From the NCBI RefSeq assembly GCF_003334405.1, contig NZ_QOWM01000008.1: DNA of 64,000 nt; one strand, written 5' to 3'. Both the position numbers and the translations under genes were made by a program. Below are positions 25,190 through 27,817 of the stretch, one piece after another. The stretch's first letter is position 1, and each line of letters opens with the position of its first letter. Origin of the DNA: Escherichia coli. GTDB lineage: Bacteria; Pseudomonadota; Gammaproteobacteria; Enterobacterales; Enterobacteriaceae. The notes below the pieces were generated by a model that had not been told where the DNA came from, did not search any database, and saw nothing but the letters and a program-made list of their open reading frames with translations.

Positions 25190-25270
25190 GATCGTCTCTG
25201 GTTCAGGAAGTATTACAGGCAGTGTTGTGCAAATTTTGCGGATTATCAAATCCTTTTCTTCAACGCTATG

Positions 25271-25453
25271 TCATCGATCTTGTATCACTTTTTTGCCGGA
25301 AGTTGTTTGCATTTTATTAGTTGGATAGGGTTTGTGGATTTTTGCTGGCTGACGGGCAAATAAAGTTTGTTTAATGGTTTGCTTATCTGCCAGTTGATTA
25401 ATCACATGGCGGGCTATCTGACCGCCAGCACCAAGAATCAGTACATTTTTCAT
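25271..25453 (-). pseudogene. ymjC: N-terminal fragment of NAD(P)-binding Rossmann protein
   Basis: 60-codon ORF with GAGGQIA dinucleotide-binding motif that stops prematurely. Confidence 0.6.
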
Positions 25454-25458
25454 GAAAA

Positions 25459-25524
25459 TTATCCCAGATTATTGGCAGCAATATGCCAGTCCATATCACT
25501 ATTGCGGATTTGAATATGTTTCAT
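25459..25524 (-). CDS. ymjD: very small ORF (21 aa) between ycjY and ymjC
   Basis: ATG overlaps ycjY stop by 1 nt; MKHIQIRNSDMDWHIAANNLG; not supported beyond operon context. Confidence 0.3.
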   Translation of the reverse strand: MKHIQIRNSDMDWHIAANNLG

Positions 25525-26444
25525 TACAGAGTTTCCTCAAAGAACGGAGCTAATACTGAAATTGCTTCAGCCACATAGGCTTTGCCGTCATAAAGATCCA
25601 TATGGTTTGCGCCTTCAACAATGTGATAGCGTTTATCCTGGCTTGATGCTCGATCGTACAGGTCGTCACTCATCCATTTGCTCCCTGCCTGGCTGCCCGC
25701 CACAATCTGCGTCGGCTGAGTCAGGTACACTTCCGCCATATGGTAAGCATCATAGGTAATAATCTGGTTAAGGCTGCGCAAAGTAGCGTAACCCGGTGCT
25801 GTTGGATACTGCGCGCGAGGGGTGTGGTAATACTCCCAGGCCTGACGCAGTTCTTCGTTCGGCGCATCGGACTCCTTCATTGGTGCCAGTGGCATAATGG
25901 CGTATTCTCCGCTGCTAATATCGCTGGTTCTGGCGTTTGAACCCGCTTCAACGTATGGCAGGGCATCAATAGATTTCACATTGTTTTCCCAACCATTACG
26001 GAATATCGAACCAATATTGACCGCACTAACGGTACCGATGGCCTTGATGCGGCGATCCTGAATTGCAGCATTGGCTGTATATCCTGCACCGGCACAAATT
26101 CCCATCGCACCAATTCGGGTATTGTCGACATAAGAAAGCGTTGTCAGGTAATCAATCACGGCACTGATGTCTTCAGTACGAATGTATGGGTTTTCTAACT
26201 GACGCGGCTCGCCGCCACTTTCACCTTGATAAGATGCGTCATAAGCAATAGTGACAAATCCCTTTTCCGCCAGTTTTTTGGCATAGGTTCCGGCCGTTTG
26301 TTCTTTAACGCCCCCACCTGGGTGAGATAACACAATTGCCTGATACTGACGGGTTTCATCAAATTTTGGAGGGAAATAGATCACTGCAGACAAAGAGATG
26401 GTTGGATTATTGCTGTTAGTGAAGCTGACTTTATTATTCATCAT
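25524..26444 (-). CDS. ycjY: alpha/beta hydrolase (peptidase S9/dienelactone-hydrolase-like)
   Basis: ORF 25524-26456; start taken 4 codons in (306 aa). Confidence 0.85.
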   Translation of the reverse strand: MMNNKVSFTNSNNPTISLSAVIYFPPKFDETRQYQAIVLSHPGGGVKEQTAGTYAKKLAEKGFVTIAYDASYQGESGGEPRQLENPYIRTEDISAVIDYLTTLSYVDNTRIGAMGICAGAGYTANAAIQDRRIKAIGTVSAVNIGSIFRNGWENNVKSIDALPYVEAGSNARTSDISSGEYAIMPLAPMKESDAPNEELRQAWEYYHTPRAQYPTAPGYATLRSLNQIITYDAYHMAEVYLTQPTQIVAGSQAGSKWMSDDLYDRASSQDKRYHIVEGANHMDLYDGKAYVAEAISVLAPFFEETL

Positions 26445-26581
26445 TCCGTTCCTCATGGAGTTGTCGGTTCGTTTTAACGGTTGGTGATATCACTATAGAT
26501 ATTGATCATTAAGTTGATTAGACCCAAAATCATGATTAGACCTATCATTTAAATGATTAATAGATTGCATGGAGATACTGA

Positions 26582-27481
26582 ATGAAGCGTGAAGAAATCG
26601 CTGATCTGATGGCGTTTGTCGTCGTTGCAGAGGAGCGTAGCTTCACTCGTGCAGCAGCCCGCCTGAGCATGGCGCAGTCAGCTTTAAGCCAGATAGTGCG
26701 TCGTATAGAAGAACGATTGGGATTGCGGCTTCTGACGCGAACCACGCGCAGCGTTGTTCCAACTGAAGCGGGCGAGCATCTTTTGTCTGTTCTTGGCCCT
26801 ATGTTGCATGACATAGATTCAGCCATGGCATCCCTGAGCGATCTGCAGAACCGCCCATCCGGGACAATACGTATTACTACTGTAGAACATGCAGCAAAAA
26901 CGATATTGTTACCAGCAATGCGCACATTCCTGAAATCGCATCCTGAAATTGATATTCAGCTCACCATTGATTATGGTTTGACCGATGTCGTTTCTGAACG
27001 TTTTGATGCAGGCGTCCGTCTGGGTGGGGAGATGGATAAAGATATGATCGCCATTCGAATCGGGCCAGATATACCAATGGCTATTGTTGGCTCACCGGAT
27101 TATTTTTCTCGCCGAAGTGTTCCAACGTCAGTGTCACAATTAATAGATCATCAGGCAATTAATTTGTATCTTCCCACATCGGGTACAGCAAATCGCTGGA
27201 GATTAATACGCGGTGGACGTGAAGTTCGTGTTCGCATGGAAGGTCAGCTTTTACTGAATACGATAGACCTGATCATTGATGCTGCAATTGATGGGCATGG
27301 ATTGGCGTATCTACCTTATGATCAGGTTGAGCGGGCTATTAAAGAAAAAAAACTGATACGTGTTTTGGATAAATTCACACCAGATTTACCCGGTTATCAC
27401 CTGTACTATCCACACCGTCGACATGCTGGCTCGGCATTCTCATTATTTATAGATAGGCTGAAGTATAAAGGTGCTGTTTAG
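26582..27481 (+). CDS. pgrR: LysR-family regulator (peptidoglycan-recycling regulator)
   Basis: 299-aa ORF with N-terminal LysR HTH; also called ycjZ. Confidence 0.85.
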   Translation: MKREEIADLMAFVVVAEERSFTRAAARLSMAQSALSQIVRRIEERLGLRLLTRTTRSVVPTEAGEHLLSVLGPMLHDIDSAMASLSDLQNRPSGTIRITTVEHAAKTILLPAMRTFLKSHPEIDIQLTIDYGLTDVVSERFDAGVRLGGEMDKDMIAIRIGPDIPMAIVGSPDYFSRRSVPTSVSQLIDHQAINLYLPTSGTANRWRLIRGGREVRVRMEGQLLLNTIDLIIDAAIDGHGLAYLPYDQVERAIKEKKLIRVLDKFTPDLPGYHLYYPHRRHAGSAFSLFIDRLKYKGAV

Positions 27482-27817
27482 CACTACTTGCTGATACATT
27501 AATTTAATTCTTCTCTTAACGTATTCTCAGTTCCTTTCAACGTTTTGGTCATTTTTTATTCTTCGTACAATGGCGACAGATGCTGATTATGATACCGAAA
27601 ACGGGTTTGAACGTGCGAAGCCCGAACGTAGTGTTCGGAGTTCTATGTGCTTTACCGCATTTTGGAGACTATTATTTACACTAAATCTGATTTGATATAT
27701 TGATACTTAAAACATTTGATGCTTCCTTTGTCACTTTTTTGATGGAAGTTGTTTGCATTTCTTTAAGGCGAAACAAATAATTACGCATCAATTTTAATGT
27801 CGGTTAGAGGGAAACTT

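Follow-up and report, generated by a model that had tools for sequence, protein, structure and literature searches.

Target duplications left by insertion sequences and transposons are 2–14 bp long, exact, and lie beside an element that carries inverted repeats and a transposase, and direct repeats of tens of base pairs are typical of integrase-mediated insertion. A further route for the entry of foreign DNA, homology-facilitated illegitimate recombination, is known from natural transformation in Acinetobacter, Pseudomonas stutzeri and Streptococcus pneumoniae. The mpaA-mppA locus of Escherichia coli, analysed here within a 64-kb stretch of the chromosome (the window), resembles islets with flanking direct repeats: two same-orientation copies of the target surround horizontally acquired DNA, an empty-site allele with one copy occurs in the same species and in its relatives, and the repeats would be able to mediate loss of the insert. 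Unlike such islets, the E. coli locus lacks mobility genes, terminal inverted repeats and a tRNA target, and unlike the target duplications of insertion sequences and transposons its repeat is far longer (37 bp) and its copies differ at 4–5 positions. We consider it likely that 37 bp of the old divergent promoter spacer of mpaA and mppA were duplicated when, on the way to E. coli, a cassette was inserted there. On this reading the repeat is genuine but an unremarkable scar of insertion, and its interpretation as a PgrR operator is not supported.

The initial annotation had described a 30-bp direct repeat with 28 identical positions in a shared orientation, and this description was confirmed, TCACTTTTTTGCCGGAAGTTGTTTGCATTT being located at 25285–25314 and TCACTTTTTTGATGGAAGTTGTTTGCATTT at 27731–27760; the position previously given for the right copy was exact, while that for the left copy was off by one. 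The similarity grows leftwards to 37 nucleotides and ends there, with 32/37 positions identical in K-12 and 33/37 (89%) in strain 20KM0223N. The mismatches (4–5 positions) all fall within the 5′ 20 nucleotides, where the right copy has diverged from the left (TCCTTTGTCAC...GAT versus TCTTGTATCAC...GCC), and the 17-nucleotide core is identical. The repeat had also been placed correctly relative to the genes: the ATG of mppA (27818) lies 57 bp beyond the end of the right copy, and the left copy begins 96 bp from the mpaA start codon (25189), inside annotated ymjC. The coordinates of these and other features are collected in Table 1.

It is extremely improbable that the two copies resemble each other by coincidence, belong to a generic interspersed repeat family or stem from duplication of a short coding sequence (MQTTS...). 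It is true that both copies start with ATG on the minus strand inside open reading frames, where they read ATGCAAACAACTTCC as the initial annotation had stated, but this reading is without coding significance. In the left copy ATGCAAACAACTTCC shares the reading frame of the final ymjC codons (...NKMQTTSGKKVIQDR), a read-through tail of a pseudogene truncated by deletion; in the right copy it lies inside a spurious 36-aa frame which has a TTG start and runs antisense through a promoter. The two frames share just five codons from the repeat core and then differ. No match to the repeat at three or fewer mismatches arose in 100 dinucleotide-preserving shuffles of the window, and at seven or fewer mismatches the two copies are the only sites in the window. 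The 37-mer occurs at a median of two places per genome, with a maximum of four, in the 5,419 complete E. coli genomes, so it is not the generic repeat that had been named as a refuting finding. The REP/BIME, ERIC/IRU, box C and RSA repeat families were rejected on account of this low copy number and the lack of a palindromic or hairpin unit, the folding energies of the copies being no better than those of shuffles (z +0.07 to +1.19). An RNA element was rejected on the same folding result and because no Rfam family overlaps either copy.

Table 1. Positions of the duplicated segment, the inserted cassette and the candidate promoters in the window
Feature	Position	Strand	Basis or remarks
Left (mpaA-side) copy, 37-nt duplicated spacer segment	25278..25314	+	pairwise identity, shuffles
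Right (mppA-side) copy, 37-nt duplicated spacer segment	27724..27760	+	pairwise identity, shuffles
Inserted cassette, K-12 form, 2409 bp	25315..27723		absent from outgroups
ymjC′, SDR N-terminal fragment	25271–25453	minus	part of K-12 cassette
ymjD	25459–25524	minus	cassette gene
ycjY hydrolase	25524–26444	minus	cassette gene
pgrR	26582–27481	plus	cassette gene
queH (epoxyqueuosine reductase) internal remnant	27579..27653	+	inside unannotated 41-aa ORF 27570–27695
K-12 665-bp deletion junction	25314..25316		deletion equivalent to L002 2355–3019; 1-nt (T) microhomology
Candidate sigma-70 mppA promoter	27753..27781	+	−35 TTGCAT 27753–27758, 17-nt spacer, −10 AATAAT 27776–27781
Candidate mpaA promoter	25221..25249	-	−35 TTGATA 25249–25244, 17 nt, −10 AACACT 25226–25221

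In a synteny sample of 80 mpaA loci from different species, mpaA and mppA were found to be adjacent and divergent in 72, with the copy placed by the conserved −35 anchor in 71 of these, and the 30-mer, where recognisable, occurs once per locus. Four of the 80 loci were too short upstream to be scored, although two of them are plainly adjacent by sequence; Escherichia sp. E1V33 (L007) bears the cassette, two Salmonella subspecies carry a different island in the spacer, and at one locus (L058) no mppA lies within 8 kb of mpaA. The outgroups with a single copy comprise E. albertii, E. whittamii, the cryptic Escherichia clades, Citrobacter, Enterobacter, Leclercia, Kluyvera and Klebsiella, the spacer measuring 182 bp in the Escherichia species and clades named and 183–192 bp in the other genera. 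This single-copy spacer of 182–192 bp is the ancestral state across Enterobacteriaceae. Since mpaA and mppA adjoin around one motif in the outgroups, ymjC-ycjY-pgrR constitutes an insertion into the spacer, which answers the question of whether ycjY-pgrR is an insertion for which the initial annotation had advised a comparison of the locus across Enterobacteriaceae. The scar of a duplication or insertion, one of the two explanations it had offered, is likewise upheld by the single-copy spacers of the outgroups and by a cassette that is bracketed by a duplicated piece of its target. The two copies border the cassette exactly, and the length of the empty site is accounted for by a left flank of 88, one copy of 42 and a right flank of 52 (182 in all). 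The single copies of the outgroups look like the left copy (GCC), which is identical to that of empty-site E. coli and of Escherichia sp. MOD1-EC7003; the consensus of the genus, TCTTTTATCAC, is intermediate between left and right copies of E. coli.

The cassette that entered this spacer would have comprised ymjC (an SDR gene), ycjY with or without a second alpha/beta-hydrolase gene, the LysR-type gene pgrR and a now-decayed queH. Fuller forms are present in E. coli, where L002 carries the SDR gene, ycjY and pgrR, and L003 the SDR gene, two hydrolase genes and pgrR within 3953 bp between the copies. The core of the latter (L003 2443–6064) is 79% identical at the nucleotide level to a larger module of the layout LysR<->hydrolase-hydrolase-SDR(-adh_short-OYE), which occurs in islands of Citrobacter koseri and other enterics. 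The 88 bp beside the left copy and the 242 bp beside the right copy have no match in this C. koseri/enteric module, and the SDR homologues at 91–92% represent the same E. coli locus, so that no intermediate or donor arrangement was found. The 242 bp from pgrR to the right copy form a decayed spacer. The queH remnant inside this spacer is called a partial QueH pseudogene by PGAP in other E. coli; it gives a weak match to the Pfam QueH model (i-Evalue 0.011, model positions 60–91 of 175) and none in NCBIfam. Judged from these alleles, the cassette is foreign and decaying, with stepwise deletions leading from L003 through L002 to K-12 and with queH reduced to a fragment.

The last of these steps, a deletion of 665 bp, took the 3′ two-thirds of the SDR gene together with 165 bp downstream. 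Its left end abuts the left copy, its junction coincides within 1 nt with the original junction of spacer and cassette, and the identical junction is present in Escherichia sp. E1V33. As many E. coli have kept the SDR gene whole, at 212 aa, alongside both repeats (L002 and L003), the duplication was not the source of the ymjC fragment, contrary to what had been suggested; the truncation is the later deletion. The last 13 codons and the stop of annotated ymjC are the left copy read on the minus strand, and the 60-aa YmjC annotation may be corrected in that these codons are probably read-through of a promoter fossil.

A flanking duplication of 37 bp is unusually long for a simple target-site duplication. 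An origin from an insertion sequence or transposon was rejected, as the repeat is imperfect at this length and is accompanied by neither terminal inverted repeats nor a transposase reading frame between the copies; no integrase, transposase or terminal inverted repeat was detected at the insert ends or between the copies in K-12, L002 and L003. The candidate origins of the duplication are one-sided homologous recombination with illegitimate joining of incoming DNA, Campbell-type integration of a circle, and repair of a staggered break. Through the duplication mpaA and mppA would each have retained a complete upstream region despite the insertion. Homology-facilitated illegitimate recombination is offered as a proposed, rather than a demonstrated, mechanism. 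It would fit the lack of mobility genes, the microhomology of approximately 1 nt, the duplicated anchor stretch and the donor-type differences in the right copy. Unlike the expectation for this process, no donor with the cassette beside an mppA-type promoter was found, and the sliding-window divergence of mppA from the sister clade (L005) is flat with no clear donor tract. Since differences at 4–5 of 37 positions exceed the expectation for an origin inside E. coli sensu stricto, the duplication may have been formed in, or imported from, another lineage.

The bracketing of the cassette by direct repeats of 37 nt that share an identical core of 17 nt is as found in integrase islands, and the segment ending ...TTTGCATTT might accordingly be regarded as a preferred site of recombination or integration, the repeats being attL/attR-like remnants of an element whose mobility genes were lost. 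Three independent rearrangements end within 1–2 nt after GCATTT: the junction of the cassette in E. coli, the 665-bp deletion of K-12 and, in Salmonella enterica subsp. diarizonae, the junction of the cdtABC island on the side of mpaA. Homologues of the cassette are located in C. koseri islands with AlpA-like and replicase genes. We nonetheless regard this as very unlikely. At the E. coli locus there are neither terminal inverted repeats nor genes for an integrase, an excisionase or a tRNA; the copies enclose only the SDR gene, the hydrolase gene(s), the LysR-type gene and the queH fragment, and the target of insertion is a promoter spacer and not a tRNA gene. The Salmonella island is without a second copy of the motif and has its mppA-side junction elsewhere, the breakpoints of the K-12 deletion are out of register with a common core, and other lineages have undergone indels or replacements at other points in the spacer (L014 and L058). 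The coincident endpoints are, moreover, explicable by selection that keeps the mpaA upstream region intact. Homology of the E. coli right copy with a 12-mer, CTTTTTTGATGG, which is also found upstream of S. diarizonae mppA was rejected, and the shared 12-mer was treated as chance because BLAST revealed no extended similarity; for the context in S. enterica subsp. enterica, the search for MpaA homologues returned no separate Salmonella cluster. A broader proposition, that the block ending TTTGCATTT is a recurrent breakpoint or integration hot spot (used independently by the E. coli cassette and the cdtABC islet of Salmonella arizonae/diarizonae) and/or the operator of a conserved regulator of murein-peptide recycling duplicated to both genes, is in our estimate unlikely.

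The preferred explanation, duplication of a promoter-spacer piece upon insertion, derives further support from the candidate promoters of the two genes. The hexamers assigned to mppA recur as TTGC[AT][AT]-17-AATAAT, without any change in spacing, in 75/75 single-copy spacers drawn from many genera, and a 46-mer over this promoter is identical in 5136/5417 E. coli genomes (95%); the predicted transcription start is near 27788, and a promoter scan reads the element as TTTGCA-18-AATAAT (27752–27781). For mpaA, hexamers of the form TTGAT[TAC]-17-AACACT, also invariantly spaced, were present in 69 of the 75 single-copy spacers and fall in conserved alignment blocks, although they match the consensus weakly and were missed by the promoter scan. 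Both assignments are thus candidates resting on conservation. On these assignments the duplicated piece would span the candidate mppA promoter from approximately −65 to −29, including the −35 TTGCAT and a conserved T-rich block upstream of it. The right copy contributes the −35 hexamer and about 30 nt upstream and, joined to the conserved −10 AATAAT, probably forms the functional upstream half of that promoter. With TTGCAT 17 nt before AATAAT and a T-tract at about −50, the segment resembles a sigma-70 promoter with UP-like A/T-rich upstream sequence, and the arrangement is that of a divergent promoter in which mpaA has its own conserved pair of hexamers on the opposite strand. The candidate mpaA promoter is located in the spacer retained on the mpaA side and does not overlap the repeat, which occupies about −64 to −100 relative to the predicted mpaA start. 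Literature searches on the mppA promoter and transcription start and on ymjC/ymjD yielded nothing about the repeat.

The left copy retains the TTGCAT hexamer at 25307–25312 and, unlike a sigma-70 promoter, has no −10 downstream of it, so that it is not a promoter. Its 37-mer is identical in 3708/5419 E. coli genomes (68%), and 32% of genomes differ from K-12 in this copy versus 5% in the right promoter, the variants including T-tract indels and −35 mutations such as TTGTAT in L094 and L095. In view of the missing −10 and the greater polymorphism, the left copy would appear to be a decaying fossil of the mppA promoter, which may serve at most as distal upstream sequence for mpaA. Its 5′ 20 nucleotides are invariant in 10 sampled occupied loci, which leaves room for a retained function.

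This invariance could also indicate that both copies are maintained as sites for one factor that co-regulates mpaA and mppA, either PgrR or an older regulator of murein-peptide recycling, the duplication having provided mpaA and mppA each with a copy of an operator that they once shared. The blocks ATATCA[A/C]nTTT...AAG...TTGCAT are conserved across genera just upstream of the mppA −35. Both copies contain an ACTT-N9-AAGT dyad, perfect in Escherichia and the C. freundii group, which is of the T-N11-A type of LysR operators and lies at about −57 to −41, a frequent binding position of LysR-type activators. The dyad is, however, not conserved outside Escherichia and Citrobacter (a mean of 2.2/4 complementary positions), and the left copy is polymorphic, as described above. 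We therefore hold a factor acting on both copies to be rather doubtful, although some conserved factor could bind the ancestral block.

As regards PgrR itself, the shared operator offered as one of two explanations in the initial annotation finds no support. Control of ycjY-ymjDC-mpaA and ycjG has been reported for PgrR (PMC5934670), and at this locus the published genomic-SELEX target list names the ycjY/ycjZ (ycjY/pgrR) spacer and not the regions upstream of mppA or mpaA. From our reading of the sequence, the repeat has only a 7-mer in common with the ycjY-pgrR spacer, as expected by chance. The motif is kept in genera for which no pgrR orthologue was found in the fetched mpaA loci; motif and regulator do not co-occur across genomes, and the motif therefore predates PgrR at the locus and did not evolve as its site. 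Unlike the PgrR site in the ycjY/pgrR spacer, the dyad of the repeat is older than pgrR at this position.

These findings date and delimit the arrival of pgrR-ycjY-ymjC in E. coli, and they present PgrR, a described regulator of peptidoglycan recycling, as a recent horizontally acquired insert between genes it reportedly controls rather than as an ancestral component. Current understanding is not overturned by this explanation of the repeat. A short duplicated piece of promoter would have let an insertion enter a divergent promoter without silencing either gene, and the duplicate would then become a recombination arm for transfer or loss of the cassette. Empty, full and decayed alleles form a natural set for assessing the effect of the cassette on the murein-peptide genes, and the mppA and mpaA promoter predictions are testable.

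The empty site of 182 bp with one hybrid copy is present in 174/5,426 complete E. coli genomes; in the representative L001 the copy is of left type on its 5′ side, followed by the right flank. By flank distances these alleles form a deep separate lineage of two haplotypes 1.2% apart and at least 2% from the nearest occupied allele, and the E. coli-specific mppA 5′UTR is common to empty and occupied alleles. The empty site in E. coli may be ancestral or may have arisen by deletion between the repeats; recombination in the 17-nt identical core would yield exactly this hybrid copy. The repeat copies and the spacer arms would have supplied homology for later recombination. In Escherichia sp. E1V33 the flanks are 76–90% identical to those of K-12, the cassette is 95–100% identical and the right copy is a mosaic, which is consistent with transfer of the whole cassette into a whittamii/marmotae-clade Escherichia with one crossover within the right copy.

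Comparison of the locus within and beyond Escherichia coli clearly points to an evolutionary origin for the direct repeat: the upstream half of the candidate mppA promoter was duplicated, and its two copies enclose a decaying cassette acquired by horizontal transfer, a familiar kind of insertion scar. The gene order in this region of K-12 is tpx-ycjG-mpaA-ymjC-ymjD-ycjY-pgrR-mppA-ynaI. The 30-bp pair with two mismatches described in the initial annotation is real, although its left copy begins one base further left than had been given. A search of the window allowing up to seven mismatches still returned just two sites, and none of 100 shuffled windows yielded a match to the 30-mer at up to three mismatches. 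Leftward extension by 7 nt produces 37-nt copies that are identical at 32 of 37 positions in K-12 and at 33 of 37 (89%) in another strain, and whose outer flanks are unrelated. Per genome, the median number of places with the 37-mer is two and the maximum four (n = 5,419 complete E. coli genomes); this copy number marks a locus-specific pair and rules out a dispersed repeat. No Rfam family overlapped either copy, and neither strand of either copy folded better than shuffled sequence.

Features of the mpaA-mppA region (positions in the window unless a locus, L, is named)
Feature	Position	Strand	Remarks
30-mer TCACTTTTTTGCCGGAAGTTGTTTGCATTT	25285-25314		partner with two mismatches at 27731-27760
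37-nt left copy	25278-25314		mpaA side
37-nt right copy	27724-27760		mppA side
Conserved blocks, mpaA side			GGCAGTGTTGTGCAAA, ATCAAAT; alignment of 75 spacers
Conserved blocks, mppA side			ATATCA(A/C)nTTT, AAG, TTTGCATTT, GAAACAAATAATTAC; alignment of 75 spacers
Candidate mppA promoter pair	27752-27781		consensus promoter scan
GAAACAAATAATTAC block	27766-27790		at proposed mppA -10
Unannotated 41-aa ORF (MATDADYDTENGFERAKPERSVRSSMCF...)	27570-27695	+	internal queH remnant, pgrR-mppA spacer
Fullest form of locus	L003		mpaA and left copy, then genes for an SDR-family oxidoreductase (212 aa) and two alpha/beta-hydrolases, pgrR in divergent orientation, right copy and mppA
Second form	L002		one hydrolase gene gone
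K-12 form			further 665 bp absent (L002 2355-3019)
Fourth form	L001		cassette absent; 182 bp between mpaA and mppA; single motif copy
Cassette core	L003 2443-6064		compared with six-gene module
Imported cassette	L007 5400-8010		Escherichia sp. E1V33
IS421	L004 4855-6331		E. coli MDR_56
cdt-like islet	L025 5449-7677		Salmonella enterica subsp. arizonae
2612-aa ORF locus	L058 44-7882		'Citrobacter sp. 18056'

The direction of change was deduced from one genome per species, scanned with MpaA and with neighbouring genes mapped by tblastn. mpaA and mppA lie side by side in divergent orientation in E. albertii, E. whittamii, three cryptic-clade Escherichia, Citrobacter, Enterobacter and Leclercia, and likewise in Lelliottia, Kluyvera, Klebsiella, Pluralibacter, Kosakonia and others, at a distance of 182-192 bp in 14 directly read spacers and of up to approximately 320 bp in a few other genera. 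A conserved -35 anchor marked a copy at the motif position in 71 of 72 species loci with this arrangement, the 30-mer, where recognisable, occurring once per locus, and the cassette was encountered in only one of the non-coli loci scanned, that of Escherichia sp. E1V33. This distribution argues that the ymjC-ycjY-pgrR block was evidently inserted into an old divergent spacer, of which the repeat is a duplicated piece, as one of the two origins initially proposed had it; pgrR is accordingly to be viewed as a late arrival. The outgroup copy is of the left type (…TTTTTTGCC…), and TCTTTTATCAC, the genus consensus over the initial 11 nt, differs by one change from the left copy of E. coli and by one to two from its right copy, distances that fit divergence of both from one ancestor.

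Four forms of the locus exist among E. coli genomes (see table). The deletion that defines the K-12 form takes the 3' two-thirds of the SDR gene together with 165 bp downstream of it, and its junction (gcattt|tattag) lies at most one base from the right edge of the left copy, so that the truncated ymjC ORF runs through this copy and terminates in the repeat-derived ...NKMQTTSGKKVIQDR. The MQTTS peptide noted in ymjC is explained by this read-through, and the ymjC fragment is a product of the deletion rather than, as first suggested, of the duplication or insertion. The left end of the deletion falls within 1 nt of the original spacer/cassette junction (25314-25316). IS elements have struck the locus repeatedly in other strains: an IS421 copy substitutes for the cassette and the mppA 5' end in one, and others carry ISVsa5-family (IS4-like) and IS1A insertions.

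What the duplicated piece contains can be read from the aligned single-copy spacers. TTGC[AT][AT], exactly 17 nt and AATAAT are present in 75 of 75, ending 31-59 nt before the mppA ATG, while TTGAT[TAC]-17-AACACT is present on the opposite strand in 69 of 75, ending 30-38 nt before the mpaA ATG; the consensus scan of the window recovers the mppA pair. We infer that the 37-nt segment corresponds approximately to positions -65 to -29 of a candidate mppA promoter, comprising the -35 hexamer and a conserved T-rich upstream block, and to approximately -64 to -100 from the predicted mpaA start. Relative to the left copy the insert would then separate the -35 from the -10, and relative to the right copy it would lie upstream of -65. 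In this arrangement the right copy, joined to the -10, would restore a complete mppA promoter, the left copy retaining an unpartnered -35. The GAAACAAATAATTAC block and, near mpaA, GGCAGTGTTGTGCAAA are near-invariant from Escherichia to Klebsiella, and conservation beyond the need of a -10 hexamer alone hints at additional regulatory contacts.

Variation among E. coli genomes is consistent with the right side holding a working promoter and the left side being under relaxed constraint. Of 5,417 genomes, 5,136 have an identical right-side 46-mer (the 3' half of the right copy plus the -10), and only 3,708 of 5,419 an identical left 37-mer, a comparison that is not base-for-base; the 5' 30-mer of the left copy is identical in 4,511 of 5,410. 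Left-copy variants include changes in T-tract length and TTGCAT to TTGTAT in the orphan -35 of two loci (L094, L095). Right-copy variation is confined to the 5' 20 nt in all sampled loci except L096, whose core carries a single change that spares the -35.

The other proposal, a shared operator possibly bound by PgrR, is unsupported, because at this locus the motif is older than pgrR, the left copy drifts, the ACTT-N9-AAGT dyad is imperfect outside Escherichia and the C. freundii group, and the SELEX list for PgrR names ycjY/ycjZ at this locus but neither the mppA nor the mpaA upstream region (PMC5934670). Some conserved factor may bind the ATATCA...AAG block that precedes the mppA -35, which would concern the right copy and the ancestral single copy.

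The cassette is of foreign origin, lacks mobility genes and has eroded stepwise; no integrase, transposase or terminal inverted repeats were found at the E. coli locus. Its core has 79% nucleotide identity to a LysR<->hydrolase-hydrolase-SDR-adh_short-OYE module, of which it is evidently a cut-down version, stopping at the adh_short gene start. This module occupies variable regions in Citrobacter koseri, adjoining AlpA-like and replicase genes, and adjoins Pycsar- or CBASS-type genes in three other NCBI assemblies. The six-gene module (L086-L091) comprises LysR, divergent from two hydrolases, an NmrA-type SDR, an adh_short SDR and an OYE flavin oxidoreductase; one copy is the neighbour of the AlpA-like and replicase genes, and others adjoin proBA beside Pycsar/CBASS-type defence genes. 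The 242-bp spacer between pgrR and the right copy includes an internal fragment of queH (epoxyqueuosine reductase), a partial pseudogene in other E. coli according to PGAP, with a weak Pfam QueH match (i-Evalue 0.011); its 41-aa ORF is open in three diverged alleles. The annotation of ymjC, the queH fragment and promoter predictions stand to gain from these findings.

In E1V33, whittamii/marmotae-type flanks (76-90% identical to K-12) enclose a K-12-type cassette (95-100%) with the same ymjC deletion junction, implying transfer of an already-deleted allele. One switch point falls in the spacer next to mpaA and the other within the right copy, which is of E. coli right type in its 5' part and native in its 3' part; this clearly indicates inter-clade transfer with the right crossover within the 37-nt repeat, the spacer arms, repeat included, thereby acting as homology that moves the cassette between lineages. 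The right copy's four to five differences seem numerous for an event confined to E. coli sensu stricto; insertion may have occurred in another lineage, followed by import through the flanks as in E1V33. Alternatively, one-sided homologous and illegitimate joining may have involved donor DNA bearing its own mppA upstream version; a search of cassette relatives found no such arrangement, and sliding-window divergence no donor tract in mppA.

The empty-site junction is present in 174 of 5,426 E. coli genomes, its 182 bp consisting of 88 bp left of the repeat, 42 nt (the repeat as reported in one comparison) and 52 bp on the right. Two left-flank haplotypes, 1.2% apart, occur among empty alleles, and the closest occupied allele found differs from them by 2% or more, suggesting an old allele class; an E. 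coli-specific mppA 5'UTR is common to empty and occupied alleles. The single copy is a hybrid, which would fit a crossover in the 17-nt identical core and equally an uninterrupted ancestor. The conclusion of insertion with a duplicated piece stands whether the empty site is a retained ancestor or a secondary deletion.

Three rearrangements stop within 1-2 nt after GCATTT: the insertion of the cassette, the 665-bp deletion in K-12 and, at its mpaA-side end, a cdtABC islet in Salmonella diarizonae. The shared endpoints may reflect selection sparing the mpaA upstream region or a local hot spot, the latter improbable given that other lineages break the spacer elsewhere. The islet (3.1-3.4 kb, three ORFs in cdtA/cdtB/cdtC order) occupies the spacer in subsp. 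arizonae and diarizonae (L027), and the product of its middle ORF belongs to the CdtB family (NCBIfam NF011787, E 1e-113). On the mpaA side, the junction of the L027 islet directly follows the conserved TTGCATTT block, at the E. coli cassette junction point. The conserved mppA -10 block is absent from the islet loci, implying that the mppA upstream region was replaced there. Elsewhere, a 2612-aa ORF adjoins the mpaA-side spacer of 'Citrobacter sp. 18056', with no mppA within 8 kb, C. koseri (L014) has an insertion of approximately 50 bp within the spacer, and cryptic Escherichia (L006, L009 and L013) carry approximately 3.2 kb of extra DNA between ynaI and mppA.
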